From a virus, in the IMG/VR virus record IMGVR_UViG_3300043681_000019, positions 1 through 42,621 of that record: 42,621 bases of DNA. One strand, written 5' to 3'. A model generated the notes under the pieces. It was not told the DNA's origin. It ran no database searches and saw nothing but the letters and a program-made list of their open reading frames with translations. Each line of letters opens with the position of its first letter. Position 1 is the stretch's first letter. Positions 2,416 through 40,808 of the stretch are shown one piece after another. The translations under genes and the position numbers were made by a program.

Positions 2416-4297
2416 GCCGACGCTCCCCACGCGGAAGGGCGGGGCCGCCGTCGGGCCGGCGATCGAACTCGTCTCGGATCTGACCGGCGGGCTCGATCGC
2501 CGATCGAACGCGACGCTCATCGGGCCCACCCGATCGCAGCGCCTGCTCAATGTCCGGACGAATGTCCCGGGCCGCTGGCATCCCCGCCCCGGCTGGGCGA
2601 CGTTCACGACCACCAACCTCGGCCCGAGCCGCGCGCAAGGCGGCAAGCGCATTTACCTCGAAGGCGTGCCCCCGTTCACGATCGTCGGCTGGGAGGGCGA
2701 TATCTACACGCCGAGCGATCTGGGGGAGTGGGACAGCCCCGTCGCGACCGGCTTCAGTCCGACGGCCTTGATTGATTTTCCCTCCGACTCGCAGATGGTC
2801 GCCGTGTTCGATGGCGTGACGCCGCCGCAATTCAGCACGGACGGCGTGAGTTGGCGCCCGCTCGGCCTCGCGGGCCCGACGAGTGCGCCCACGCTCACCG
2901 CGAGTGCCGGCGGCACGCTCATGACCGACCACGTCTACGAGGTGTCGGTCGGCTATCAAGGCGCCCTCGATAATTTCCCGAGCAATGAGGGCCCCGCCGC
3001 GACCATCACCGTGACGATGCCGAATCTCACGATCCACGTCGTCGCCGCCGCCTCCGCCGATCCGCAAGTGACACATCTGGTGATCTACGCCCGCGACGTG
3101 ACGCTTGGGGAAAGTCAACGCCGGTTCGTGACGACCGTCGTCAATCCAGGGACCGGCACGGTCGTCGTCGACCTCACGGCCAACACGTGGAGTGAAGCCC
3201 TCGAAGCGCCGACGACGCACAATCCGGCCCCGCCGCTCGAGTTCGGGCAAGTGTGGAAAGGCCGCTGGTGGGCGAAGGACCCGGTGGGCCCGGTCACGAT
3301 CCGGTTCTCGGAGATTTTTCTGCCGCAAGCCTGGCCCGTCAACTACACGATCGATCTGCCGTTCACGAGTGGCGATCACATCACGGCGATCATTCCCTAC
3401 GGGGACACGCTCGTCGTCATGGGCACGTCGAAACCGGCCTTTCTCATCGTCGGCATTGGCGTGCTCGACTTCGATGTGCGCCCGAGCGCCGGCAGTCGGG
3501 CCGGCTGCTTTGGCCCGCGCGCCTGGGATCTGGTCGGCGGGCGCATCGCCCATGCGTCGGGCGAAGGCGTGTACTTGTTCGATGGCGCCAATGATGGGCT
3601 GCTCACGACCGACCTCGAACAAGACTGGCGCGATGTCGTGGACGTGACGAGCGAACCGCAGCTCTATCGCACGCCGCTGGTCTATCACGAGGCCGAGAAG
3701 GAAGTGCGCGTCGCCGTGCCGAATCTGACGCTCTATGGGCAGCCGGGCGAGTTCGTGTTCGACCCGATCCGGACCGGCCAGGGCGTGCCCGTGTGGAGCA
3801 TGACCGACCGCGCGCTGGGCGGCTACATCAGTTGGAATGGGCCCGAGACGCGCACGGGCGATCGGGGCCGGCTGTTCAGTTGGGATCTGACGACGGGTCA
3901 GCTCCGTGAAGAAAACCTCGGCACGTCGGCCGATGGCGCCGATCTGACCGCGCAGTATCGCGGGCCGGTGTTCACGTCGGGCTTGCCGATGACGCGGTTT
4001 CTGAATCTGTATGCGGAGCATGCCGTGGCCCAAGGCGTGTTTACGCTCACGGTCACGGTGGACGAGGCGTTTGTCTGGTCGGGGACCGTCGACATCAGTG
4101 GGTTTGCGCCGACGCTGTCGGTGGCGCTGCCGTTCTTTCTCGGCATCGGCGGCCGGCGCGTGTTCCAAGTGGACCTGCCGCTGGAAGCCGAAGGCCGCGG
4201 AATTTCGGTCACGGGCGTGTACGTCGGGCAAGACAATTTCGACTGGTTCACCTACGCGTTTACGTATCTGCCCGAGCCAGCCTTGAGGGGGTTCTAA
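2402..4297 (+). CDS. Tail hub / beta-propeller-like structural protein (631 aa), possibly P22 gp10-like
   Basis: Long ORF with good composition and high GC3. Segments LLNVRTNVPGRWHPRPGW, WKGRWWAKDP..IRFSE and DTLVVMGTSKPAFLIVG recall the P22 gp10 tail-accessory pattern, from memory only. Position is between the fibre genes. Confidence 0.65.
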   Translation: MAARKPTLPTRKGGAAVGPAIELVSDLTGGLDRRSNATLIGPTRSQRLLNVRTNVPGRWHPRPGWATFTTTNLGPSRAQGGKRIYLEGVPPFTIVGWEGDIYTPSDLGEWDSPVATGFSPTALIDFPSDSQMVAVFDGVTPPQFSTDGVSWRPLGLAGPTSAPTLTASAGGTLMTDHVYEVSVGYQGALDNFPSNEGPAATITVTMPNLTIHVVAAASADPQVTHLVIYARDVTLGESQRRFVTTVVNPGTGTVVVDLTANTWSEALEAPTTHNPAPPLEFGQVWKGRWWAKDPVGPVTIRFSEIFLPQAWPVNYTIDLPFTSGDHITAIIPYGDTLVVMGTSKPAFLIVGIGVLDFDVRPSAGSRAGCFGPRAWDLVGGRIAHASGEGVYLFDGANDGLLTTDLEQDWRDVVDVTSEPQLYRTPLVYHEAEKEVRVAVPNLTLYGQPGEFVFDPIRTGQGVPVWSMTDRALGGYISWNGPETRTGDRGRLFSWDLTTGQLREENLGTSADGADLTAQYRGPVFTSGLPMTRFLNLYAEHAVAQGVFTLTVTVDEAFVWSGTVDISGFAPTLSVALPFFLGIGGRRVFQVDLPLEAEGRGISVTGVYVGQDNFDWFTYAFTYLPEPALRGF

Positions 4298-17627: not shown

Positions 17628-18296
17628 ATGACAGAGAGAGTATCCATGACCGACGACACGCCCGTCAAGACGGCCTACCGCCTCCCCGACGGGCAGATCA
17701 TCCACGTGCAAGAAGAACTCGCCCGCGGTGCCCAGACGATTGGCTTCACGCTCCGGGGCGGCGAGGTGGTGGATGCGGTCCGCGTGCCGCCCCCCGTCAA
17801 TCGCGTCGTGACCGACCCGCCGCAACGGATGACGCTGGCTGAGCGCGACGCGACCCTTGAAGCGCTCATCCTCGTCATCGCCAAGCTGCTGTATCAGGCG
17901 CGCGAGTGCCACACGCTCGGCGTGGCGTCGGTGATTCCGTTTGAGCATCTGCCGCAGGCGTGGCGGCAGGACTTGCACGACGCGGCCCGGGCCGTCGTCA
18001 TGCACGAATCGCTGCCGCGGCGTCAGGATGCGGATGTGGCCGCGCGGGCGTATCTGACGCGCTGGCTCGAGGCCGAGGCCGTGACGCAGGCCCCCTGGGG
18101 GACGGCGGTGGCGACGCAGGAACGCCGGTTGCTGGAGCGCTTCATCGAGCGCATCACGGGCGGGCTCGGGCCGTCGGTCGTGACCGAAGTCTTGCACAGC
18201 TATCAGGCGGCGCTCTGCGGGCCAGAGACCCGCACGGCGCGGGCCCAGGTTGCCCGGGCGGCGTTCGCCACGCACACGTCTGGAGGTGTCGCATGA
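17628..18296 (+). CDS. Hypothetical early protein (222 aa; alternative start at 17646)
   Basis: Good composition from MTERVSMTDD onward. The stop overlaps the recT start. Confidence 0.6.
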   Translation: MTERVSMTDDTPVKTAYRLPDGQIIHVQEELARGAQTIGFTLRGGEVVDAVRVPPPVNRVVTDPPQRMTLAERDATLEALILVIAKLLYQARECHTLGVASVIPFEHLPQAWRQDLHDAARAVVMHESLPRRQDADVAARAYLTRWLEAEAVTQAPWGTAVATQERRLLERFIERITGGLGPSVVTEVLHSYQAALCGPETRTARAQVARAAFATHTSGGVA

Positions 18297-19087
18297 ACGG
18301 CAACAGCATGACGCTGGTCCCGCCCACCGTCCCCGTGACGGCCATGACGCCGGTCACGTTCACGTCGGACCAAGTCGAACTGATCAAGCGCACGATCGCG
18401 AAAGATGCGACCGATGACGAACTCGCGCTCTTTCTGCATCAATGCAAGCGCACGGGCCTGGACCCGATGACCCGCCAAATCTACGCGATCAAGCGGCAGG
18501 GCAAGATGACTATCCAGACCGCGATCGACGGCTTTCGTTTGATCGCCCAGCGGACTGGCGAATATCGCGGGCAGGTCGGCCCGTTCTGGTGCGGCGAGGA
18601 TGGCGTCTGGAAAGACGTATGGCTCGACAAGCGGCCGCCGGCCGCGGCCAAGGTCGGGGTCTTGCGGGAACACTTTCAGGAGCCGTGCTGGGGCGTGGCG
18701 CGGTTTGACGCCTATGCCCAACCGCTCACCTACGCCAACGGGCAACTGAGTCTGTGGGGAAAGATGGGCGACACGATGATCGCCAAGTGCGCCGAGGCCC
18801 TGGGCTTTCGGAAGGGGTTCCCGCAAGAACTCTCCGGCCTCTACACCAGCGATGAAATGGAGCAGGCCGACACGACACCAGTCGCGAGCGCGCCGCGCGT
18901 GGTCGTCGAGCCCGCCGTACCCAATGGATTCGACGAATGGTGGCAAGACCTACAGCAGGTCGCGCACGAGGGCCGCGAGGTCCTCCGCGAGACGTGGCTC
19001 GCCAGTCCCCAGGTCTTCCGCAAGTACCTGATCGAGACCAACAACGCAGCGTGGGAAGCCCTCAAACGTTCGACGGTGGCGGCATGA
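18293..19087 (+). CDS. recT: RecT/Bet-family single-strand annealing protein (264 aa)
   Basis: ATGA overlap at 18293. Contains LFLHQCKRTGLDPMTRQIYAIKRQGKMTIQTAIDGFRLIAQRTGEYRG. Confidence 0.85.
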   Translation: MNGNSMTLVPPTVPVTAMTPVTFTSDQVELIKRTIAKDATDDELALFLHQCKRTGLDPMTRQIYAIKRQGKMTIQTAIDGFRLIAQRTGEYRGQVGPFWCGEDGVWKDVWLDKRPPAAAKVGVLREHFQEPCWGVARFDAYAQPLTYANGQLSLWGKMGDTMIAKCAEALGFRKGFPQELSGLYTSDEMEQADTTPVASAPRVVVEPAVPNGFDEWWQDLQQVAHEGREVLRETWLASPQVFRKYLIETNNAAWEALKRSTVAA

Positions 19088-19725
19088 AAATCCACGTCGT
19101 CGATCAACGCTCGCCGGAATGGCGCCAGTTGCGCGCGGGCAAACTCACGGGCAGCCGGGCGAAGCACATCCTGGCGGCCGGACGCGGCAAAGAGGAAGCC
19201 GTCGGCCGGCGGGACCTGCGCTATCAACTGGCCGCCGAACGGCTGACCGGCGAACCGCAAGAGGACACGTTTGCCAATGGCGCGATGCAGTGGGGCATTG
19301 ACCACGAGGCCGCCGCGGTCGCCGCATATGAGGCGGTGACCGGGCAAATGGTCGAGGCCATCGGGTTCTGCGAGCACGACACACTGCTCGCCGGCACCTC
19401 GCCCGATGGCTTCGTCGGCGCCGACGGCCTCCTGTCGATCAAGTGTCCGAAGACCTCGACTCACGTGGGCTATCTCCGCGCGGACACGGAGCCCAGCGAA
19501 TATGTCGCGCAGAACACCCATGAACTCTGGCTCACCGGCCGCGCGTGGATCGATTTCGTGTCGTTCGATCCGCGCCTGCCCGAGCTCCTGCAACTGCTCA
19601 TCGTGCGCGTGACACGCACGCCCGAGCAACTCGAGACGTACGGCCAGGCGGTGGCGCTCTTTCTCCGTCAGGTCGACGACGAAGTGACCGCCCTGAAGAC
19701 GATGAAAGGCCGGAGGGCCGCCTAA
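19084..19725 (+). CDS. YqaJ/lambda-Exo-like recombination exonuclease (213 aa)
   Basis: ATGA overlap at 19084. Contains QRSPEWRQLRAGKLTGSRA and DGLLSIKCPK, consistent with a PD-(D/E)XK fold. Confidence 0.85.
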   Translation: MKIHVVDQRSPEWRQLRAGKLTGSRAKHILAAGRGKEEAVGRRDLRYQLAAERLTGEPQEDTFANGAMQWGIDHEAAAVAAYEAVTGQMVEAIGFCEHDTLLAGTSPDGFVGADGLLSIKCPKTSTHVGYLRADTEPSEYVAQNTHELWLTGRAWIDFVSFDPRLPELLQLLIVRVTRTPEQLETYGQAVALFLRQVDDEVTALKTMKGRRAA

Positions 19726-23482: not shown

Positions 23483-23670
23483 TGCCGGTGAAGCGCCCGT
23501 GCCTGCACGGCTGGCATGTGGCCTGCCGCGCGTGTGCCGCCATCGCCGATGCACTCGACGCGCAATTCCAGCGCGACGTATTTTTCGGCGTCTACAACGC
23601 CCGTGGGTACACGCCGGAGGAATGGGCCGCGAAACAGCGACGCGATCGCGATCGGCGGGCCGCTGCATGA
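23479..23670 (+). CDS. Hypothetical protein (63 aa)
   Basis: ATGA overlaps at both ends. Confidence 0.5.
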   Translation: MMPVKRPCLHGWHVACRACAAIADALDAQFQRDVFFGVYNARGYTPEEWAAKQRRDRDRRAAA

Positions 23671-23879
23671 CAGCCCGGGAGAAGTTTCACATTGGCCAAC
23701 CTGTGACGCTGACCGCGGAGGCGATCCAGCGAAAAATCTCCCGTCACGTCGAGCACGGCGTCGTGGTCGGTTTCGGCGACCGATCGACGCTCGTGTGGAT
23801 TCAGCGGGAGGGGCGCAAGTCCCGGGAGAGCTATCACATGGATTTTTGGGAACCGGACGCACGCCGGGACACGGTATGA
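23667..23879 (+). CDS. Hypothetical protein (70 aa)
   Basis: ATGA overlaps at 23667 and 23876. Normal composition. Confidence 0.55.
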   Translation: MTAREKFHIGQPVTLTAEAIQRKISRHVEHGVVVGFGDRSTLVWIQREGRKSRESYHMDFWEPDARRDTV

Positions 23880-25045
23880 GCCTGATTCGCGCTGATGCTC
23901 GCTCGCTCCCGATCGCTGATGGCGTCGTGAACTGCTGCGTCACGTCGCCGCCGTACTTCGGACTCCGCGATTACGGAACCGCGACATGGGACGGTGGCGA
24001 CCCAGACTGCGCGCACACGGGCCGCTTGAAGCCACAGCGGGATACGCACGGGCAAGGCGTGAGCAAGGGCCGATTTTCCGACACCAGAGGGACGCAACCA
24101 GCGAAGCGAGCCACAACTATCCCGGTACGCGAGGTGTGTCGGTGTGGCGCTCGCCGGATCGATCGGCAGATTGGCGTGGAGGCCTCTCCGGATGCGTACG
24201 TTGCGGCACTGGTCGCCGTCTTCCGAGAAGTGCGGCGAGTGCTCACTGACGACGGTACGTGCTGGGTCAATCTCGGGGACTCCCACAACAACAGCGACAA
24301 GTGGGGCGGTGGCTCCTCAAGCGTCGGCAAGCACAAGCGCCTCGGAGGCGAACAGCCTTCAGCGGGCGTCCGCCGTCGCTGGCGTGGCATAGAAGGCACG
24401 AAGTCGAAAGACTTGTTGATGATTCCGGCAATCGTCGCGCTGGCGCTGCGGACTGATGGGTGGTACTTGCGCTCGGACATCATCTGGGCAAAGCCGAACC
24501 CGATGCCGGAATCGGTGACGGACCGGCCGACCAAGTCTCACGAGCACCTGTTCCTACTCACGAAGTCGGCGAAGTATTACTACGACGCGAAGGCTATCAG
24601 CGAACCGTGTGCTGGACTGAACCTCCATGACATCACCGGTTCTAGCTATGTTGCACCAGGGCAGACGCCGCACACCGGGACACGACGCAGTGGCAACACG
24701 ACGCGTGTGTTGGGGAATGAACGTGGGCGGCCTAGCTCGCACCTCGGTGCCAGTATCCCCTGGGAAGGCACCACCCGAAACAAGCGCGACGTGTGGACCG
24801 TGCCGACGCAGCCGTATATGGGCGCCCACTTCGCCACGATGCCTGAAGCGTTAGTAGAACCGTGCATTCTTGCCGGCGCTCCTATCGGTGGGTTAGTGCT
24901 CGATCCGTTCTGCGGGAGTGGGACGGTGCTGGCCGTCGCGGAGCGATTGAGTCGCCGGAGTGTTGGGACGGACCTAAACTATCAAGGCTTGGCGGCCGAG
25001 CGCATCGCACAGCGCGGACTGATGTTTGAGGAGGCCGTGTCGTGA
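23876..25045 (+). CDS. Orphan beta-class DNA methyltransferase (N4-C or N6-A; 389 aa)
   Basis: Motif IV TSPPY lies near the N-terminus and motif I LDPFCGSGT near the C-terminus. Also IIWAKPNPMPESV and TKSHEHLFLLTKS. No partner endonuclease is present. Confidence 0.9.
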   Translation: MSLIRADARSLPIADGVVNCCVTSPPYFGLRDYGTATWDGGDPDCAHTGRLKPQRDTHGQGVSKGRFSDTRGTQPAKRATTIPVREVCRCGARRIDRQIGVEASPDAYVAALVAVFREVRRVLTDDGTCWVNLGDSHNNSDKWGGGSSSVGKHKRLGGEQPSAGVRRRWRGIEGTKSKDLLMIPAIVALALRTDGWYLRSDIIWAKPNPMPESVTDRPTKSHEHLFLLTKSAKYYYDAKAISEPCAGLNLHDITGSSYVAPGQTPHTGTRRSGNTTRVLGNERGRPSSHLGASIPWEGTTRNKRDVWTVPTQPYMGAHFATMPEALVEPCILAGAPIGGLVLDPFCGSGTVLAVAERLSRRSVGTDLNYQGLAAERIAQRGLMFEEAVS

Positions 25046-31222: not shown

Positions 31223-32677
31223 ATGCCGCGGGCGGAACTGCACTGGAACCCGCTGCAATCGACGGCGCTGCAAGCGACGCACCGGTTTGTCGACTTGGAA
31301 GGCGGCATCCGCGCGGGCAAGACAACCCCCCTTGTCGCCAAGCCGGCGGACTTGGCCATCCGATACCCCGGGATTCACTGCTTCCTCGGACGGTGGACGG
31401 ATGACGCGGTGTCAGCTCAGTTGCGGCCGGCGTGGCGCGACTATGCCGCCAAGGTGGGACTCGAGCTGTACTGGCATGGGGACGAGCAGTACGACGAGGT
31501 CATCGGGACCGGCTCGCGGGTGTACTTGCGCGGGCTGCGGGCGAGTGAGGACAGTAACCGGTACGGGAAGTTCCGGGGGCTCACCCTCGCATGGATTGGC
31601 ATCGACCAGGCCGAAGAGGTGCCGCACGATGTGTTCCTGGAACTCGCCGGCCGCTTGTCGCAGCCAGGCTATCCGCATCAACTCTGGTTGACGCCGCAGC
31701 CCGTGATCCCAGACCACTGGATAGCGAAGACGTTCCCGGAAGACAATCCGTACCCCGACCATCTGTACCTGCGGACCAACGTGTACGACAACGTCGCGAA
31801 CGTCGGCCAGGCGTACGTCGATTCGCTCGAAGCCTTGTACCCGTTGGGGTCGTCACAACGACGCACGTTGCTGGAAGGCCGACGGGGCCTTGCGGGACGA
31901 GGCGAGCCGGTGTATGCGGGGTACTTCGACCGACAGCGGCACGTGCGGCCCGTGGAGCTGTCCTTGCGGGTGCCGCTGATTGAGTCGTGGGACTGGGGGC
32001 ATGGGCATCCGTGCGTGTCGTGGTCGCAGTTCTGGCCGGTCGGGGCGTACGTGCAGCTCGGGGCCGTGATGGGGCAAGCGATGTTCCTCGAAGACTTCGT
32101 GCCGGCGGCCTTGCAGTATCGGCAGCAATGGTGCCCGCGGCCGCTGACCATCCATGCGACGGGGGACCCGGCGGGGTTGGATGTGACCAATCAGGGCACG
32201 AAAGTCTCGAAGGTGCGAGAAGTGTTGGCCTCGCATGGCGTGACACCGACGGCCATCGCGTCGATGAACACGCCGGAGATGCGGTACGACTCGATTCAGG
32301 CGACGGGCGGGTACATGCGGCGCATCGCGCTCGATGGGGAACCGGCGTTTCGGGTCAATCCGCGGTGTGTGGTGTTGACGGGAGACGGGGCGGAAGATGC
32401 CAGCTTTACCGTCGATGGGTACGAGGGCGGGTACGTGTGGTCGGATATCGTGTTGCGCGGGCGGCAGACGTTTCGGGTGCCGAAGAAGGACGGGTACTAC
32501 GACCATTTTCAGAACACGAACGAGTACGCGGTGTTGATGCACGGGCCGGGACTGGTGACGCAGGAGACGCTCGCGCGAGTGGAGCGGCGGGAGGAGCGGC
32601 GGCGGATGCAGGACCGGGACCCGGCGGATGTACGGGAGCGGCGACGTGAGGGGATGCGGCATCGGGTGGGGCGATGA
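31223..32677 (+). CDS. terL: Terminase large subunit (484 aa)
   Basis: Walker A GGIRAGKT and Walker B-like LAWIGIDQAEE. The C-terminal nuclease half contains SWDWGHGHP and ATGDPAG. Confidence 0.9.
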   Translation: MPRAELHWNPLQSTALQATHRFVDLEGGIRAGKTTPLVAKPADLAIRYPGIHCFLGRWTDDAVSAQLRPAWRDYAAKVGLELYWHGDEQYDEVIGTGSRVYLRGLRASEDSNRYGKFRGLTLAWIGIDQAEEVPHDVFLELAGRLSQPGYPHQLWLTPQPVIPDHWIAKTFPEDNPYPDHLYLRTNVYDNVANVGQAYVDSLEALYPLGSSQRRTLLEGRRGLAGRGEPVYAGYFDRQRHVRPVELSLRVPLIESWDWGHGHPCVSWSQFWPVGAYVQLGAVMGQAMFLEDFVPAALQYRQQWCPRPLTIHATGDPAGLDVTNQGTKVSKVREVLASHGVTPTAIASMNTPEMRYDSIQATGGYMRRIALDGEPAFRVNPRCVVLTGDGAEDASFTVDGYEGGYVWSDIVLRGRQTFRVPKKDGYYDHFQNTNEYAVLMHGPGLVTQETLARVERREERRRMQDRDPADVRERRREGMRHRVGR

Positions 32678-34529: not shown

Positions 34530-36650
34530 ATGGCTGACGCTGCCCCGATCCCCGGCCTCGCCGGTGTGCCCCTGGCCCGCGGCGCGGCCAAAACCGACCC
34601 GTACCGCGTCAAATTGTCTCCCGAGGACGAGCAGACGTTCGTCCAATGGCTCATCAACGAAATTCAGGCCGCGGATAACGCCCGCGCGAAGAGTACGCAG
34701 GACCACGGCCGCATTGACTACTGGCACGAGCTGTACGAGCAGACCCCGCAAGACCTCAGCGCCGCCTGGCCCGATGCGGCCAACCTCAGTTCGTGGCTTC
34801 CGGTCGAAAAGGTGGATGCGCTGCGCGCCCGGTTGACGCAAGTCGTCTTCGGGCCGTCGCCCATTTGTACGGTGGACGGGTACGGGGAGTCGCAAGAGCG
34901 GTGCGGGAAACTCGAAGCGTTCCACGAGTGGAAAGCGAAGGACGAAAAACTCCGCACGTGGTTTTCCCGCGCGATTCATACCAGTCTGATTGAAGGCAAC
35001 GGCATCCTGGAGTGTTCCGAACGCCGCCTCGTGCGGAAATTCCAAGCGCAAACGCGCGTCCATGCGGTCACCGATGACTTCGGCGCCCTCCAACTCGACG
35101 AACACGGGCGCCCGACGCCGAAACGCGGCGACGACGGCCAACTCGAGGTCTGCGACGAGCCCGGCTGCGAGAAACCCTCGCTCACGGTCCACTACAGCGA
35201 CCAGGCGGCCGTCTGTGACGGGCCGCAGTACCGCGTCTTGTCGATGAAAGACTTCCTGTTTCTCCCAGGCCACGCGCGGGACACGTCCGAAGTGTGGGGC
35301 TTTGCCAAACGCGTGTTTTTGCGGCTCCCGGAACTCGAACAGCGTCAACGCGCGGGCTTCTACCGGAACGTCGACCAGATTGGCACCGATGGCGACCGTG
35401 ACCAGCGCGAAGAGGACACGCGTCAGGGGCGCACAATTGCCCCGCAACAGGGGCCGACGGCCGAAAAAGAACTGTGGGAAGTGCATCTCTTCTACGACAT
35501 CGATGATGACGGCGTCGAAGAGTGGCTGATTGCGACCGTGAGTGTCCGCTTCGGCGTCTGTCTCCGGCTCGAACATGACTCGCTACGCCAGGTCCGGTTC
35601 ATTTCCCTCACCCCGTTTCCGCGCGCCGATTCGGTCTACGGCTACTCGTTTGTCGGGGACAAAATCGCCGGGGTCGCCGAAGAACACGCGGCCTTGCGGA
35701 ATCAGATTGCCGACCGCGGCGCGCTCGCGACCAACGCGCCCATCAAACGCTTGAAAGATGGCTACTGGAATCCCGACGATCAGCCGTGGGGCCCGAACGC
35801 GGTCATCGAAGTCGCGCGCATGGACGAAATCCAGCAGCAGCAAGTCGCCGATGTCCCGCAGTCGACCGTGTTTCAGAAGCGCGATTGCGAAGAGGCGGCC
35901 GAGCGCATTTCCGGCCTGAACGATCAGAGCGTCATCGGCGCGGGCTCGCCCACGCAAATCACCGCGACGCAAGTCCAACAGGAAGCGCACGCGTCGTTTG
36001 TCCGCATTGACGAGCCCGTCCATCACCTGCAGGAGGCGATGGCCGAGCTGTATCAGTTGCGGAATGAAATCTGGCGGCGGTCCTTGCTCGCGCAGGACTC
36101 GGGCGTGGCCCCGACCTCGAGCGTCCTCCGTGGCTTGCAGACGATTGGCCTCACGATGCCGACCGAGGGGCCGTTCAAATTCACGCACGAGGATCTGACC
36201 GGACACTTCTCGTTCGTGCCGAAGGGCAGTGTCGAGACGGCCGACAAGTACCGGATGCGCGAGGATTTCAATCTGTTTTTCGCGCAGACGTTGCCGGCGA
36301 TTGCGAAAGTGTTTCCGCAACTGCTCCAGCAGATCCAGACCAACCCCAAAGTCGGCGAGATGATTCTGCAGAAGGCGTTTCATCTGTACGGGATGAGCGA
36401 TCTGCAGAGCGTGTTCTCAAGCGGCGGACCGCCGATGCCGATGACCGCGCCGGGGATGCCTGGGATGCCCGGGATGCCGCCAGGGATGCCCTCGCCGCAG
36501 CCACCGGCCGGTCCGGGCGCCTTGCCCGGACTGCCGCCTGGGCCAGCGCCACCCGTGCGCGGCCCTGAAGTGCCGCCGCAGGTGCTCCAGATGCTGCAAG
36601 CCGCAATGGCGCACGGGGCGCCGGTGCCTGGGCCGGCGACGCCGCAATGA
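34530..36650 (+). CDS. Portal protein (706 aa) with a Pro/Gly/Met-rich C-terminal tail
   Basis: Size and position between terL and scaffold/capsid. Long helical core. The tail contains PGMPGMPGMPPGMP. Confidence 0.75.
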   Translation: MADAAPIPGLAGVPLARGAAKTDPYRVKLSPEDEQTFVQWLINEIQAADNARAKSTQDHGRIDYWHELYEQTPQDLSAAWPDAANLSSWLPVEKVDALRARLTQVVFGPSPICTVDGYGESQERCGKLEAFHEWKAKDEKLRTWFSRAIHTSLIEGNGILECSERRLVRKFQAQTRVHAVTDDFGALQLDEHGRPTPKRGDDGQLEVCDEPGCEKPSLTVHYSDQAAVCDGPQYRVLSMKDFLFLPGHARDTSEVWGFAKRVFLRLPELEQRQRAGFYRNVDQIGTDGDRDQREEDTRQGRTIAPQQGPTAEKELWEVHLFYDIDDDGVEEWLIATVSVRFGVCLRLEHDSLRQVRFISLTPFPRADSVYGYSFVGDKIAGVAEEHAALRNQIADRGALATNAPIKRLKDGYWNPDDQPWGPNAVIEVARMDEIQQQQVADVPQSTVFQKRDCEEAAERISGLNDQSVIGAGSPTQITATQVQQEAHASFVRIDEPVHHLQEAMAELYQLRNEIWRRSLLAQDSGVAPTSSVLRGLQTIGLTMPTEGPFKFTHEDLTGHFSFVPKGSVETADKYRMREDFNLFFAQTLPAIAKVFPQLLQQIQTNPKVGEMILQKAFHLYGMSDLQSVFSSGGPPMPMTAPGMPGMPGMPPGMPSPQPPAGPGALPGLPPGPAPPVRGPEVPPQVLQMLQAAMAHGAPVPGPATPQ

Positions 36651-36976
36651 TCGCGACCGACACCCAGCCCAACGGCTACGTGCCGCCGCCCGAGGGGCAG
36701 CCTGACCGGGAACGCGACGACCTGCAGGCGATGTTGCACTCGCCCGGCTGGCGGATTTTCTGTGAGCATGTGGCGGAAGACTGGGGCCGGCCCGAAGTGC
36801 TGACGCGCATCTGTGCGGCGCTCCAGAACGAGCAGTACATCGTCGCCGCCCGTCTCAGCGCCGGGAAGGACGCGATCGAAGCCGTCATGACGTGGCCGCT
36901 CAATCGCATTCACGCCTTGAGCCTGCCCGTGCGTGCACGCGCGGCGGGCCGTCCCCATCGGAGGGCCCGTGTTTGA
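36647..36976 (+). CDS. Hypothetical head-module protein (109 aa)
   Basis: ATGA overlap with the portal stop. Confidence 0.55.
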   Translation: MIATDTQPNGYVPPPEGQPDRERDDLQAMLHSPGWRIFCEHVAEDWGRPEVLTRICAALQNEQYIVAARLSAGKDAIEAVMTWPLNRIHALSLPVRARAAGRPHRRARV

Positions 36977-37253
36977 GCCCCGCGGTCCGAACGCCTTGAT
37001 TGATCCGATCGCGCCGACGCCGCGATCCGCACTCATTGCGCTGACCGACCGTGAGGTGCCGATCGTGGGTCGCGTCGTCGCCCTCGGCAAGGCGCATTGC
37101 CCCGACTGCGGCACCCGGCTCGTGCCCGATGTCGAGGTGGGGGCGATCGTAATCGTGCCGCCGACCGCCGGACAGGAAACGATCGTCGATGACCATGAAT
37201 ATTGGGTCGTGCCCTTCGCGGACATCCTGGCGGAATGGAAAGAGGACGTATGA
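36969..37253 (+). CDS. GroES/Cpn10-fold-like protein (94 aa from GTG 36969; the track ORF starts at 36933)
   Basis: LIALTDRE..IVGRVVALGK...VPDVEVGAIVIV...DDHEYWVVPFADILAEW parallels GroES (GEVLAVG...DVKVGDIVIF...EEVLIMSESDILAIV). No mobile-loop segment is present. Confidence 0.45.
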   Translation: MFEPRGPNALIDPIAPTPRSALIALTDREVPIVGRVVALGKAHCPDCGTRLVPDVEVGAIVIVPPTAGQETIVDDHEYWVVPFADILAEWKEDV

Positions 37254-38233
37254 GTGATGACGCCGCCGTCGCCGCCGAGACGATTCCGCTCGAAGATGGC
37301 GAGGGCGCGAGCACCCCGCTCCCGCCGGACCTCGCGCTACCGACCGAGCCCGCCGTCCCCGCGACGCCGCCGGCGGGGGAGACGCCCCAGGGAGAAACGC
37401 CCCCGGCGGCCGCCGCCCCGGTCGACCCGGCCAAGGCCGGCATCCTCGCCGAACTCGGCCGCGAACGGCACGAAAACAAGACGTTGAAACAGTTCCGAGA
37501 CCAGGCGTCGCCGATTCTCCTCGCGCTCCAGAAGCATCCCGATCTACTGGTCGAGATTCAGCAGCGGGAAAGTGGGGCGCCGCGCCCGGCCCCCCCGGCC
37601 GGCGTCCCCGCCCGCACGCCCCCGCCGGCCGAGGTCGGCCCTTCGGTCGAGGATCTGACGCAACTGGCCACCGACCTCGTGCTCTACAAGGCCGACGGTT
37701 CGGGCCTCCCTGATGTGGACGCCGCGCGGCGCATCTGGCAGCGCAACTCCCAGCAGGTGCAGCAGGCCGTGAATGCGGCCATCGCGCAGCATGTGGCGCC
37801 CATGCAGCAGACGATGCAGCGCAGCCAGGCGCAGCAGGCGCGCGAGGCGATTGAACAGACGGCCAAGTCCATCGGCGCCGATGGCCCGGAACTCGCGCAG
37901 ATTCTCGATGGCTTCATGCAGAGCGACCCGAGCCTGCTCAGCAACCCGCAGATTGCCGTCTCGGCCATCGTCATGGCGCGCGGTATGAAAGGCATGCCCA
38001 CCGGCGGCACGCCCGCCGTGGCCGCGCCCGGGACACCGCCCGGGCTTGAGGCCCCCGCGCCCGTGTTCACGGAACGGCCGGGCGCTCGCACACCGCAGCC
38101 CGTCGTCATGGCGCCGATTGAACAGCGCGCGGCCAAAGCGCGCGGCATGACGCCGGAAGCCTGGGGCGCGGCCACCGCGCCGCTCACGACCGCCGTCAAA
38201 GGCCAGCAACATATCGTCTTGGAGAATGACTAA
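37250..38233 (+). CDS. Putative scaffolding protein (327 aa)
   Basis: ATGA overlap at 37250. Acidic, Pro-rich N-terminus followed by A/Q-rich helices. Located between portal and capsid. Confidence 0.55.
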   Translation: MSDDAAVAAETIPLEDGEGASTPLPPDLALPTEPAVPATPPAGETPQGETPPAAAAPVDPAKAGILAELGRERHENKTLKQFRDQASPILLALQKHPDLLVEIQQRESGAPRPAPPAGVPARTPPPAEVGPSVEDLTQLATDLVLYKADGSGLPDVDAARRIWQRNSQQVQQAVNAAIAQHVAPMQQTMQRSQAQQAREAIEQTAKSIGADGPELAQILDGFMQSDPSLLSNPQIAVSAIVMARGMKGMPTGGTPAVAAPGTPPGLEAPAPVFTERPGARTPQPVVMAPIEQRAAKARGMTPEAWGAATAPLTTAVKGQQHIVLEND

Positions 38234-38799
38234 TGCCCCGATCCCCCCGCGCCGAATCCCTGCCGGAGACGTTCGAGGACGACGGCGCCGCGCCGGTCCC
38301 CACGCCACCGACCTTGCCGAGTTTCGAGATTGCCGAACGGCGCGCGAAGTACGGCGATGTCGCGACGTTGCGCGAGCTGGACGCCGCCGCGGCGCTCGTC
38401 GATCAGGCCGTGCCGATGGTCACGCGCTGGATCTATACCGGCCCCGGCGCCCCGCTCGATCGCTTCTACGAAATCATCGCGCAGAAGGGCTATCAGCAGG
38501 TCCACGAGCGGGACCTGAAGACCCCGGCGCACCGGAACGGGTGGGGCCTCTCGCCGGAAGGGTACGTGACGCGCGGCGAGAAGGGCCACGAACTGCTCGT
38601 CAAGATGCCCGAGCATCTCTACAAGCAGATTCAGGCGAAGAAGGCGCACGATGCGGACGCGAAGCGCCGGTCCGCGGGGAAATTGCGGCAGGACCTCGCC
38701 GAGGATCTCGCGGAGGCGGGCCACTCGCGCGCCGAGGCGATCGGCCGCGGTATCCAGATGTCCGAGTTTCAGGAAACCGCCGACGTACGGAAAATCTGA
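38233..38799 (+). CDS. Hypothetical head-module protein (188 aa)
   Basis: TAATG overlap at 38233. Normal composition. Confidence 0.6.
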   Translation: MPRSPRAESLPETFEDDGAAPVPTPPTLPSFEIAERRAKYGDVATLRELDAAAALVDQAVPMVTRWIYTGPGAPLDRFYEIIAQKGYQQVHERDLKTPAHRNGWGLSPEGYVTRGEKGHELLVKMPEHLYKQIQAKKAHDADAKRRSAGKLRQDLAEDLAEAGHSRAEAIGRGIQMSEFQETADVRKI

Positions 38800-38807
38800 G
38801 TGCACGG

Positions 38808-38883
38808 TGCGGGGTAGAGCAGCGGCCAGCTCGCCAGGCTCATAACCTGGAGATCGCCGGTTCGAGTCCGGCCCCCGCTACCA
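38808..38883 (+). tRNA. tRNA with CAU anticodon (Met, or Ile2 if lysidinylated), with an encoded CCA end
   Basis: Manual cloverleaf: TGCGGGG / TA / GAGC-AGCGGCCA-GCTC / G / CCAGG-CTCATAA-CCTGG / AGATC / GCCGG-TTCGAGT-CCGGC / CCCCGCT / A / CCA, 76 nt in total. Position 1:72 is T-T. Confidence 0.85.
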
Positions 38884-39352
38884 CACGAAGGAGTCCGGTG
38901 CAGGTGACGATGAGCCGCCCTCGCGAGAGGAGAAGTGAACTCGAGCCTGCGGCGCACGCGGCCCAGTCATCGATGCAGATCCATACGGCACCGCGGCCGC
39001 TGGTCCTCGATCATCAGGGCGCTCGTCTCGAGCGCGCGATCGGATTCCGCCCACGTTGGCTACCGAGACGTGACCGTGAACCGTCTTGCTGACCGGACTC
39101 CGAGAGAGTAGACTCGCTCGCATCAAGCGGGGCGTGCGTCGGTGGGCACGCCTCAGATCGACCGAACACTGATCGATCGCTCGCCGGCGTCATGCGGACC
39201 GCGAGCGATGGCCCGCGCCTCCGCATGTTCGCGGCCCAAGCCCCGCGTCACCCACGCTTGATCGGCCGGAGACTCGGTCGGAGTCCTTCGCGCGGCATCC
39301 TGAGCCCGACCCAACACTTCACCTTTTTCCGCGGGCGGTTCCACGTGGAACC
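38884..39352 (+). ncRNA. Gene-free GC-rich region next to the tRNA: candidate structured RNA or regulatory region
   Basis: No credible ORF on either strand across about 490 nt. GGAGTCCGGT (38890-38899) is complementary to ACCGGACTCC (39092-39101). Local hairpins include CCTC-GCGA-GAGG (38919-38930), GGCGTGC/GCACGCC (39131-39152) and CATGCGGA/TCCGCATG (39191-39227). Confidence 0.3.
39337..39352. promoter_or_regulatory. 16-bp perfect palindrome GGTTCCACGTGGAACC upstream of the decoration/capsid genes
   Basis: Read directly from the sequence. It ends 9 nt before the AAGGAG Shine-Dalgarno of the gene starting at 39376. Confidence 0.45.
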
Positions 39353-39375
39353 GATCTCGCCAAGGAGTGTGGCTC

Positions 39376-39858
39376 ATGGCCACTCTAACCGTCTCGTCGG
39401 GCGACTATCTGCGCCCGCATCGCGGCCATACGCGTATCTTGCATGCGCCCGAAGGCGCCGCGCAGGCCTTCAAGAAAGGCGCCCCCGTCAAATTCTCGGC
39501 CGTGGCGGGCCGCGAAAACGAAGTCATCGTCGTCGGCGCCGACCCGACCACGGGCGTGTTCGGCGTGGCCGCCGATGACGCCTCGGGCGTCCAGGGCACC
39601 GATGTCACCGTGTGGCTCGCCGAGCCCGGCGTCGAGTTCGTCGGCCGCGTGCAGGACGGCGGCGTGCTCGCCCACACGAACGTCGGGGCCGCCCTCGGCC
39701 TGATCTTCGACCCAGTGAACAACATCTTCCGCGTCGATCTCTCGGACACCACCAACACGAATCTGATCGGCGTGTCGCTTGTCGATGCCGCCGGCGACAT
39801 CAACGGACGGATCTCGTTCCAGTGGAAGGCGTCCGCACGCACGCCCTTCCAGGGCTAA
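39376..39858 (+). CDS. Putative head decoration protein (160 aa)
   Basis: AAGGAG at 39362-39367. Contains AFKKGAPVKFSA...GVFGVAADDASGVQGTDVTVWLAEPGVEFVG, which looks like a DUF2190/gpD-type beta protein. Immediately upstream of the capsid gene. Confidence 0.55.
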   Translation: MATLTVSSGDYLRPHRGHTRILHAPEGAAQAFKKGAPVKFSAVAGRENEVIVVGADPTTGVFGVAADDASGVQGTDVTVWLAEPGVEFVGRVQDGGVLAHTNVGAALGLIFDPVNNIFRVDLSDTTNTNLIGVSLVDAAGDINGRISFQWKASARTPFQG

Positions 39859-39872
39859 CAGGAGATTGAGTC

Positions 39873-40784
39873 ATGGCCCAAGTCCGAGGCACGATTCCCG
39901 CCAACGTTGACAATGTCGATAAGACCGTCTTCGCCATCGTCGGCAAGACCCTCAAAGAACTCCCGGCCATCTGGCGGAAGTTCTACCGCATCGAGACCAG
40001 CGATCGGAAGTTCGAGCGCAACGTGTCGTACGCGATGTTCGGCCCCGCCCCGGTCAAGGGCGAAGGGCAGGACTACACGACCCAGCTCATCAAGCAGGGC
40101 TGGACGAAGGACTTTACGCATCTGGAATTCGGCCTCGCCTTCGAGGTCACCCAGACGGCGCAGGAAGACGACGTGTACGACATCCTGAGTCAGTACGCGA
40201 CGGGCCTGGCCCGCGGCTGCCGCGTGGCCGAAGAGACGTACGCCGCGATTCCGTTCAATAACGGGTTCGCGACCGAGACGAGTCCGGACGGGCAGCCGAT
40301 CTTCGCGGCGGCGCATCCGCTCGTCGGCGGCGGGACGGCGCTCAACACGCGCACGAGCGATCTGTCGTGGCTCTCGTTGCAGCAGGCCATTATCGACCTG
40401 AACACCGACCAGAAGACCGAAGAAGGCTTCTTCTCGGCGCCGGTCGACGGCCTGATCCTCTACGTCCCGCCCGCGCTGGCGCTCCTGGCCGAGCGGATCG
40501 TCGGATCGTCCTTGCTGCCCGGCGTCGCCGACAACGACATCAACCCGATCAACAAGGGGTACGACATCACCGTGATCGTCAATCCCTACCTGACCGACCC
40601 GGATGCCTGGTTCCTCATCTACAAGAACAAGAACCACGGCATCCTGTCGTACACGCGCGTGCCGATCGGGATGCAGCCGCCCGAGCGGATTCCGCGGTCC
40701 GGCAACCGGTTCTATTCGATTCGCTTCCGGCGCTCGTGGGGCGTGCGCCAGTGGCAAGGCCTCTGGGGTTCGCCGGGCGCGTAG
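39873..40784 (+). CDS. Major capsid protein (303 aa)
   Basis: AGGAGA Shine-Dalgarno. Size, position and pattern fit: FYRIETSDRKFERNVSYAMFGPAPVKGEGQDY...HLEFGLAFEVTQTAQEDD...AAHPL. Confidence 0.8.
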   Translation: MAQVRGTIPANVDNVDKTVFAIVGKTLKELPAIWRKFYRIETSDRKFERNVSYAMFGPAPVKGEGQDYTTQLIKQGWTKDFTHLEFGLAFEVTQTAQEDDVYDILSQYATGLARGCRVAEETYAAIPFNNGFATETSPDGQPIFAAAHPLVGGGTALNTRTSDLSWLSLQQAIIDLNTDQKTEEGFFSAPVDGLILYVPPALALLAERIVGSSLLPGVADNDINPINKGYDITVIVNPYLTDPDAWFLIYKNKNHGILSYTRVPIGMQPPERIPRSGNRFYSIRFRRSWGVRQWQGLWGSPGA

Positions 40785-40808
40785 ACCGCCGAGACGCCGG
40801 TGTTTTCT
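40785..40808 (+). terminator. Candidate intrinsic terminator/attenuator after the capsid gene
   Basis: ACCGCCG-AGA-CGCCGGT hairpin (one mismatch) followed by GTTTTCT. Confidence 0.35.

Follow-up and report, generated by a model that had tools for sequence, protein, structure and literature searches.

A conserved non-coding element, probably a structured leader RNA, precedes the decoration and capsid genes in a clade of high-GC phages

The question raised by this locus is what occupies the 492 nt between a tRNA gene and the next gene start (the ATG at 39376) in the head module of the phage genome IMGVR_UViG_3300043681_000019, all 42,621 nt of which form the window analysed here (~67% GC, with every gene on the + strand). 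A preliminary description of this DNA had reported a gap without a credible open reading frame (ORF) and without lowered GC content, and both statements hold: in each half of the gap the GC spread between codon phases is 0.10, compared with 0.28–0.45 in the neighbouring genes, the ORFs that can be drawn resemble Arg/Gly/Pro-rich off-frame sequence, and the GC content is 0.65–0.70. It had proposed a structured non-coding RNA (ncRNA) filling this gap, by analogy with the large GOLLD and ROOL RNAs. Comparison with related loci indicates that the gap consists of two unrelated parts, a tRNA-linked insertion (part A) and a conserved leader (part B, ~39109–39375), a reading to which we assign a probability of about two in three. 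That the region is composite, with part B a conserved non-coding element independent of the tRNA, is highly probable; its action as a structured leader RNA of the + strand is likely; and masking of the ribosome-binding site (RBS) with regulated release is a tentative proposal for its function, a little short of an even chance on the modelling described below. The structured RNA of the preliminary description thus survives in the 3′ ~260 nt, where helices covary, and not in the 5′ 225 nt, which lack homologues and fold with a z-score of −0.99.

Loci with genes for relatives of the capsid and decoration proteins were collected from IMG/VR, JGI, ENA and Logan assemblies and are designated here by L and a number; the distant lineages (L170–L179) were gathered afterwards with a profile of the decoration protein, and a metagenome scan with the capsid protein yielded one usable close relative, a duplicate of L002. 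About a dozen lineages have part B conserved in front of the decoration gene, and in none of them does a tRNA lie at this place. L001 is 92% identical to the window from 39110 to the decoration gene, L002 is ~72% identical from 39159 onward, and nine core lineages align throughout part B, with invariant blocks. The gap without a called gene before the decoration gene measures ~250–490 nt in the loci where it is bounded (L012, L014, L020, L021, L023, L026, L027 and L028); where contigs end within it (L024, L025, L029 and L030) it is at least ~160 nt. Substitutions in part B show no 3-periodicity when the window is compared with five relatives (p = 0.5–0.97), and the adjacent gene is 3-periodic in four comparisons (p = 1e-3 to 1e-6; 0.11 for L020). 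Each relative except L001, which has no indels, carries 7–12 frame-breaking indels in part B, stop codons occur in nearly every frame, and no frame is open across all lineages.

At its 5′ edge the element carries promoter motifs. The sigma-70-like site of the window (table 1) predicts a transcription start at ~39121, and the 5′ border of the leader carries a −10-like hexamer (TAGAAT, TAGACT or GAGAAT) in each of the eight core lineages tabulated. At the homologous place L172 has TTGACA-17-TACACT and L179 TTGACA-17-TAGACT, each with 10 of 12 matches where 0.1 such sites would be expected by chance; L170, L176 and L025 show TTGACA-type sites as well. No terminator-like site was found between the promoter or leader and the decoration gene in the window, nor in L172 and L179. 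Given these promoter motifs and no terminator, part B is read as a promoter followed by a ~255-nt 5′ leader (~39121–39375), and in all core and several distant lineages it stands on the same strand directly before one gene family. A late-regulatory region, which the preliminary description had listed as an alternative, thus comes nearest to the outcome, a probable promoter and leader of a capsid operon. A promoter for a phage-type RNA polymerase was considered and rejected, as the core motifs are not repeated in the window and no RNA polymerase is found among its Pfam matches.

The 5′ domain of the leader (39129–39247) shows covariation. It was examined in the nine core lineages, hand-aligned on the invariant flanks CUGAUCG, GGCC, CGG/CCG and CGCGG with gaps padded with N. 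In this alignment 94.1% of cells are paired (73.0 ± 1.7 in shuffles), 21 of the 35 pairs have changed on both sides and the covariation score is 0.513 against 0.155; none of 500 shuffles reaches these values, and slid controls are 23–43% paired. Hairpin P1 has changed on both sides in 7 of 9 pairs (93.7% of cells paired) and hairpin P2 in 11 of 12 (96.6%). For the pseudoknot stem PK, 3 of 9 pairs are compensatory, one position occurring as U-A, A-U and C-G; a G-C to U-A swap separates even the window from the 92%-identical L001, and in L025 the stem reads CAUCCGGU/ACCGGAUG. Hairpin P3 is invariant in the nine lineages and therefore gives no covariation evidence in either direction. Between these helices lie the invariant unpaired blocks CAG, CUGAUCG and GGCC, of which CUGAUCG is found also in L014 and, as CTGATC, in L023; the domain as a whole looks like a binding or sensing platform. 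Among the hairpins that had been listed from the sequence of the window, those at 39131–39152, 39191–39227 and 39230–39247 correspond to the conserved P1, PK and P3, the one at 39156–39178 is not preserved in the closest relatives, and P2 had not been listed. It should be noted that MAFFT and RNAalifold applied to all lineages give a near-empty consensus (−8 kcal/mol), because that alignment is not structure-aware, and that P2 and PK were aligned by hand because realignment with a covariance model left one-column register shifts in P2.

Covariation extends into the 3′ domain (39271–39376). Hairpin P4 is paired in 87% of cells, compared with 59.9% in shuffles, and 6 of its 7 pairs are compensatory over 11 lineages; again 0 of 500 shuffles reach the values. 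The P5 pairing, in which CCGACC is complementary to a segment that begins with the P4 loop, is 100% complementary in 13 lineages, with no shuffle of 500 reaching its covariation score and with three independent changes that keep the pair: G-C to A-U in L025 and L030, C-G to U-A in L170 and L172, and G-C to U·G in L174. The alignment for P5 was hand-picked, the motifs of the distant lineages being chosen by eye at the matching distance from the start codon. The spacing of GGTCGG and CCGACC varies little, from 30 to 32 nt. A covariance model of the 3′ domain built from six lineages recovers the leaders of L014 (E = 2.6e-6) and L028 (6e-5), neither of them in its seed, at the right place, and in the window neither it nor the 5′ model finds a further significant copy. 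The 3′ arm of P4, GGAG(U/G), resembles a Shine-Dalgarno sequence and its 5′ arm, CUC or CCUC, an anti-Shine-Dalgarno sequence, so that alternative pairings with the real ones are possible; in the minimum free energy (MFE) fold of L172 (~1400–1440), CCCUC just 5′ of GGUUGG pairs with the real Shine-Dalgarno GAGGG. An upstream ORF served by the GGAG of P4 was considered and dropped, as no start codon follows.

The same domain is predicted to close over the RBS of the decoration gene. In the MFE fold UGAGCC pairs with GGCUCA (39371–39376), ACACU with AGUGU (39366–39370) and CCUU with AAGG (39362–39365), so that everything from the Shine-Dalgarno sequence through the A of the AUG is predicted to be paired; the 7-nt bulge CGACCCA of this anti-RBS helix is complementary to the P4 loop GGUCG. 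Inside the helix, a hairpin (P6) is predicted at the same place in every lineage folded, each time with a different sequence. An equivalent pairing of the Shine-Dalgarno region is predicted in every lineage, for example CCUACC/GGUAGG in L021, ACUCCAG/CUGGAGU in L025 and CCUUC/GAAGG in L026. When cognate anti-RBS pairs were compared with non-cognate ones, the cognate set was beaten in 211 of 20000 permutations (p ~0.01); this figure is for narrowed segments, since a first version of the duplex test was confounded by the arms of P6. The predicted paired probability of nucleotides −16 to −1 is 0.81 in the window and 0.76 on average in 15 lineages, as against 0.60 ± 0.14 at 59 other gene starts of these phages (Mann-Whitney p = 4.6e-5, the lineages not being independent). 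A further possible hairpin, GUGGC-UCAUG-GCCAC at 39369–39383, which competes with the lower part of the anti-RBS helix, would place the start codon in its loop and draw on codons 2–3 of the conserved N-terminal "MAT".

Table 1. Coordinates in the window of the leader, its neighbours and the structural elements described in the text.
Feature	Position	Strand	Details
tRNA-Met (anticodon CAU)	38808–38883	+	ARAGORN; Rfam RF00005, 63.5 bits; CCA encoded
Part A, orphan non-coding 225 nt	38884–39108		No homologue; 3′ end provides −35-like hexamer
Sigma-70-like promoter	39086–39114	+	TTGCTG (39086–39091), 17-nt spacer, TAGACT (39109–39114)
P1 hairpin	39129–39154	+	GGGGCGUGC / GCACGCCUC, 9 bp (39129–39137 with 39146–39154)
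Single-stranded CUGAUCG, just 5′ of P2	39169–39175	+	Invariant in 9 lineages
P2 hairpin	39176–39209	+	AUCGCUCGC / GCGAGCGAU (39176–39184 with 39201–39209)
Pseudoknot stem PK	39191–39227	+	CAUGCGGA (39191–39198, P2 loop) with UCCGCAUG (39220–39227)
P3 hairpin	39230–39247	+	CGCGG / CCGCG (39230–39234 with 39243–39247)
P4 hairpin	39271–39285	+	GACUC / GAGUC (39271–39275 with 39281–39285), invariant loop GGUCG (39276–39280)
Anti-RBS segments	39301–39325	+	UGAGCC (39301–39306), ACACU (39314–39318), CCUU (39322–39325)
P5	39306–39311	+	CCGACC with GGUCGG (39276–39281); inside predicted bulge of anti-RBS helix
P6 hairpin inside anti-RBS helix	39331–39360	+	Palindrome CGGUUCCAC/GUGGAACCG at 39336–39353, from repeat search
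Shine-Dalgarno sequence, spacer and start codon of decoration gene	39362–39378	+	AAGGAG (39362–39367), start codon 39376–39378; predicted masked
Leader-preceded genes	39376–40784	+	Decoration/cement protein (39376–39858, 160 aa), major capsid protein (39873–40784)

Taken together with the position of the element, these pairings suggest the following mechanism. The 5′ domain would be formed by P1 and P2, with the P2 loop pairing as a pseudoknot with the strand that immediately precedes P3; in the default fold the anti-RBS helix, enclosing P6 and leaving its bulge CGACCCA free to kiss the P4 loop, would lock the RBS of the decoration gene. Translation of the decoration and major capsid proteins would then need a trigger that remodels the P4/P5/anti-RBS module. 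A protein of the phage or the host might provide it, as might a small molecule that the 5′ domain senses or the folding of the RNA during its transcription. We infer from this arrangement that the + strand RNA is the active form, that RBS masking is its output and that the masking is regulated rather than constitutive. A stronger version, in which the leader is a true sensor (a riboswitch or protein-responsive switch) whose 5′ domain binds a metabolite or factor, toggles the P4/P5/anti-RBS module and so gates capsid translation, seems to us unlikely.

Several observations weigh against the leader reading or narrow it. The promoter of the window is poor, with 7 of 12 matches and a weak −35 hexamer, and falls under the scanner threshold; its −35-like TTGCTG comes from the insertion. 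The thermodynamics are weak, part B having a z-score of −1.84 and the mean of 13 lineages being −1.04. The pair counts are inflated, because the alignments for P2, PK, P4 and P5 were fitted to the structure by hand, and the shuffle control overstates significance, because it includes only 9–13 sequences and these are related. The pairing of the RBS lies at the upper end of a high background that is normal for RNA of 67% GC. After CCGACC all lineages carry a G-poor, C/A/U-rich tract (39312–39330 in the window), unusual in a genome of 67% GC, and this could be an unstructured translational enhancer or a ribosome standby site instead of an anti-Shine-Dalgarno strand. The core covariance models miss the leaders of L021, L023, L026, L029 and L170–L179, so that the homology of the distant leaders rests on short motifs and architecture. 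Finally, two relatives have no leader: in L178 the junction (1200–1510) joins the homologue of the upstream 188-aa gene to the decoration gene as TAA-ATG, and in L003, whose capsid protein is 28% identical, the gap is 13 nt (3410–3424). The leader is thus confined to a clade, and some lineages can do without it.

Of the competing explanations, the one that survives best, which we consider somewhat unlikely, is a constitutive device for the stability or processing of the messenger RNA, in which hairpins shield the capsid message from 5′-end-dependent RNases or split the low-copy portal/scaffold message from the high-copy decoration/capsid one, and the RBS pairing is incidental or readily melted. 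In phage T7, RNase III sites and 5′ stem-loops around gene 10 serve stability and processing in this way. The element here lies exactly between head genes of low stoichiometry (portal and scaffold) and of high stoichiometry (decoration and capsid), read-through transcripts must exist as there is no terminator, the helices are well supported, and the RBS pairing is no more than moderately above a high background. A stabiliser, however, needs neither invariant single-stranded blocks nor a pseudoknot nor a compensated GGUCGG:CCGACC pairing beside the RBS; no helix of the leader reaches the ~20 bp of a canonical RNase III site; and every lineage has a predicted anti-RBS pairing, though the sequences that form it differ.

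A second explanation has the inverted repeats act as DNA or on the other strand, as dimeric sites for a late regulator, as a cruciform or single-stranded structure for replication or packaging, or as an antisense RNA over the RBS. Watson-Crick covariation is strand-symmetric, and the pairs themselves do not settle the strand: there are 18 G·U cells against 13 A·C cells, no significant excess, and the MFE z-scores show no significant difference between the strands. The near-constant spacing of GGTCGG and CCGACC is likewise what a protein-binding palindrome would show. Because G·U is not above A·C and the z-scores are alike, our assignment to the + strand rests on promoter orientation, gene context and the RBS pairing. 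At least five helices swap their sequence freely while keeping complementarity, unlike operators; wobble-only changes opposite the Shine-Dalgarno sequence (C to U opposite G) are tolerable only in a + strand RNA; the promoters point rightward and the genes are all on the + strand. For a packaging site, moreover, the terminase and portal genes, the usual location of pac or cos, are 3–8 kb away. We therefore regard an action as DNA or antisense RNA as very unlikely.

The remaining alternatives concern the tRNA side of the gap. GOLLD and ROOL are free-standing RNAs of 500–800 nt that often lie beside tRNAs, and the whole 490 nt could in principle be one ornate ncRNA of that kind: a phage tRNA adjoins it, it has no ORF and many complementary segments, and the fold of the whole gap compared with shuffles is marginal on the + strand (z = −1.99, against −0.63 on the − strand). 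None of the relatives examined, however, has the tRNA or the first 225 nt, while the last 260 nt are conserved without them. The segment 38800–39108, comprising the tRNA and part A, is peculiar to this phage among the related loci; an ARAGORN scan of these loci found no tRNA, and in L001, whose capsid protein is 99% identical, a 28-nt hairpin is all that lies between the stop codon of the 188-aa gene and the homologue of window position 39110. For these reasons we regard 38800–39108 as a phage-specific insertion. As the related loci have no tRNA and most nevertheless carry the leader, the link between leader and tRNA is, to judge from these sequences, accidental; adjacency to a tRNA was misleading here, and it was the relatives that showed an apparently single feature to be an accidental insertion next to a conserved element.

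Nothing resembling part A was found elsewhere. It has no similarity by blastn or tblastx to any of the collected loci or to the rest of the window, and an exact pattern from it has no match in IMG/VR; in 120 viral tRNA-Met loci similarity stops at the tRNA and never enters part A, and a blastn search of 38200–40800 against phage GenBank in distant mode returned tRNA matches only. It folds no better than shuffled sequence. All pairings cited in the preliminary description are present, including CTCGAGCC/GGCT..CGAG and the GCGA-capped hairpin at 38919–38930, and its caution that the 10-bp match of 38890–38899 with 39092–39101 is near chance was justified: a perfect inverted repeat of at least 10 bp occurs in 29% of 492-nt windows of this genome. 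This enclosing helix and the pairing nested in it both fall within part A, which lacks homologues, and have no statistical support; covariation in homologous regions, which the description had suggested as a check, is seen for P1, P2, PK, P4 and P5. The suggested Rfam/Infernal scan of the whole window gave the tRNA alone at gathering thresholds, and cmscan of 38600–39600 at E ≤ 10 added two chance-level matches to unrelated families, with no RNA family, GOLLD and ROOL included, for the gap. Reading part A as a miniature inverted-repeat transposable element with 10-bp terminal inverted repeats was rejected, as there is no target-site duplication and no second copy, and the repeat is at chance frequency. 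With the conserved part ending in an RBS that it is predicted to pair, preceded by promoter motifs and without a terminator of its own, the RNA is better described as a cis-acting 5′ leader than as a free-standing ncRNA, and the GOLLD/ROOL analogy fails on covariance-model match, on size and on tRNA association in homologues; a single tRNA-tied RNA is largely refuted and very improbable.

A decayed gene or a hidden small protein gene, which the 43–44-aa ORF of some relatives in the tRNA/part A slot and a faint GC-phase signal on the minus strand might suggest, is equally improbable, as no frame of part B is open in all lineages, its indels are not multiples of three (7–12 breaking the frame in each relative but L001), 3-periodicity is lacking, the GC-phase spread is 0.10, the ORFs have the Arg/Gly/Pro-rich look of off-frame sequence, and tblastn of the relatives' small ORFs against part A gave no match.

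Between the 188-aa head-module gene and the capsid operon lies a variable slot, empty in some relatives and occupied in others by the small ORF, a conserved basic one (MPLQKGSSQ...IAIALKTAGK; L002:3111–3242, L012:402–536 and L020:2570–2701) with no Pfam family; we conclude that the slot between the 188-aa gene and the leader is an insertion hot spot. L020 also has ~960 nt without a called gene (1606–2570) upstream of its small ORF and leader. The minus-strand-like signal at 38920–39040 in the window has a spread of 0.22, compared with ~0.4 in real genes, and may be either noise or what is left of a decayed gene within the insertion. The inserted tRNA itself has a look of the fMet type rather than of an elongator. 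Initiator tRNA-fMet is marked by the anticodon CAU, a mismatch at 1:72, A11:U24 and three G-C pairs at the foot of the anticodon stem; by eye, the tRNA of the window has CAU, A11:U24, a 1:72 mismatch that is U·U in place of the canonical C·A, and two of the three G-C pairs, 29:41 being A-U, and its acceptor, D and T arms are near those of Escherichia coli tRNA-fMet.

That the gene downstream of the gap encodes a decoration protein, as had been proposed, was borne out by its predicted fold and its position. The AlphaFold2 model (pLDDT 91.9) has as its best Foldseek matches in the PDB the capsid cement or decoration proteins of Sf11, TW1, T1, phi29 (gp8.5) and lambda (gpD), namely 9ocb_J (E = 1e-3), 5wk1_K, 9kzj_H, 6qyy and 1c5e, with probabilities of 0.99–1.0 and TM of ~0.5; the fold is like that of gpD and TW1 gp56, and the gene adjoins the capsid gene (PF25209 Phage_capsid_4, E = 6e-15), which starts 14 nt after it. 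Elsewhere in the window are a RecT/YqaJ recombination pair (17960–19725), a DNA methylase (23516–25045), the terminase large subunit (31223–32677) and an SU10-type portal (34530–36650), and neither an integrase nor a phage RNA polymerase was seen among its Pfam matches. The head module also encodes a GroES/Cpn10-like co-chaperonin (36933–37253; PF00166, E = 5.7e-9) between the portal and scaffold genes, and such a gene is present at L014:766–1077, L020:641–922 and L021:750–1019. No prophage copy was found in 185,579 GTDB species genomes, and a capsid-protein search of genome contigs was also empty; scans with the core DNA motif gave 13 extra matches in genome contigs and 2 viral ones, which we regard as chance, as no decoration or capsid homologue adjoins them.

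The leader belongs to no described family, the Rfam 15 cmscan matching RF00005 only, and the motif appears new in comparison with the Rfam families, a comparison that did not extend to the 8495 unnamed candidate structured RNAs (csRNAs) of IMG/VR. Its kind is known, because structured RNAs upstream of phage head genes have already been catalogued: the Rfam motifs GP20-a (RF02991) and GP20-b (RF03003) and the IMG/VR csRNAs, five of which lie upstream of a major capsid protein family (PMC10690425), are likewise motifs from comparative genomics just upstream of head genes in uncultivated phages. The GP20-type motifs are 70–110 nt long and belong to other phage groups, and the cmscan, which included GP20, gave no match here. 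With GOLLD and ROOL the leader shares phage or prophage DNA, non-coding nature, many helices and pseudoknots; it differs in that its conserved part is ~255 nt, adjoins and is predicted to pair the RBS, and is never beside a tRNA in the relatives. The leader of T4 gene 32, made up of a 5′ pseudoknot and an unstructured operator, is likewise a cis-acting phage 5′ leader, and it controls translation of the adjoining gene for an abundant stoichiometric protein. It has no Rfam model (PMC10690425). That element is short and its pseudoknot nucleates the cooperative binding of gp32, whereas the leader described here has ~255 nt, at least seven helices and a predicted RNA–RNA masking; there is no sequence relationship between the two.

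Translational riboswitches of the SAM-II or preQ1 type and ribosomal-protein leaders offer a parallel in layout, with a pseudoknotted upstream domain and invariant unpaired nucleotides followed by a helix of anti-Shine-Dalgarno and Shine-Dalgarno strands; CCGACC in our leader similarly has two possible partners. There is, however, no match to an Rfam riboswitch, the alternative conformers are deduced from complementarity, and virion structural genes would be an atypical riboswitch regulon. In the com–mom system of phage Mu the RBS of a late gene is locked in a hairpin and opened by a phage factor, a plausible mode for the leader too, although in Mu the element consists of one small hairpin that has a defined binding site for Com.

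To our knowledge structured cis-regulatory RNAs of phages are poorly charted, and post-transcriptional control of capsid genes is barely known outside a few model phages. In a clade of uncultivated high-GC soil phages the element described here is conserved before the genes for the two most abundant virion proteins. If the RBS lock is confirmed, it would be a tractable new RNA motif, reusable as a regulatory part in high-GC hosts, and would raise the question of what unlocks capsid translation and so sets the timing and balance of head assembly. Were the unlikely sensor version true, it would be the first riboswitch-like checkpoint on virion structural genes, tying capsid output to the state of the cell or to assembly, and the coupling to assembly could be autogenous, through free decoration or capsid protein.

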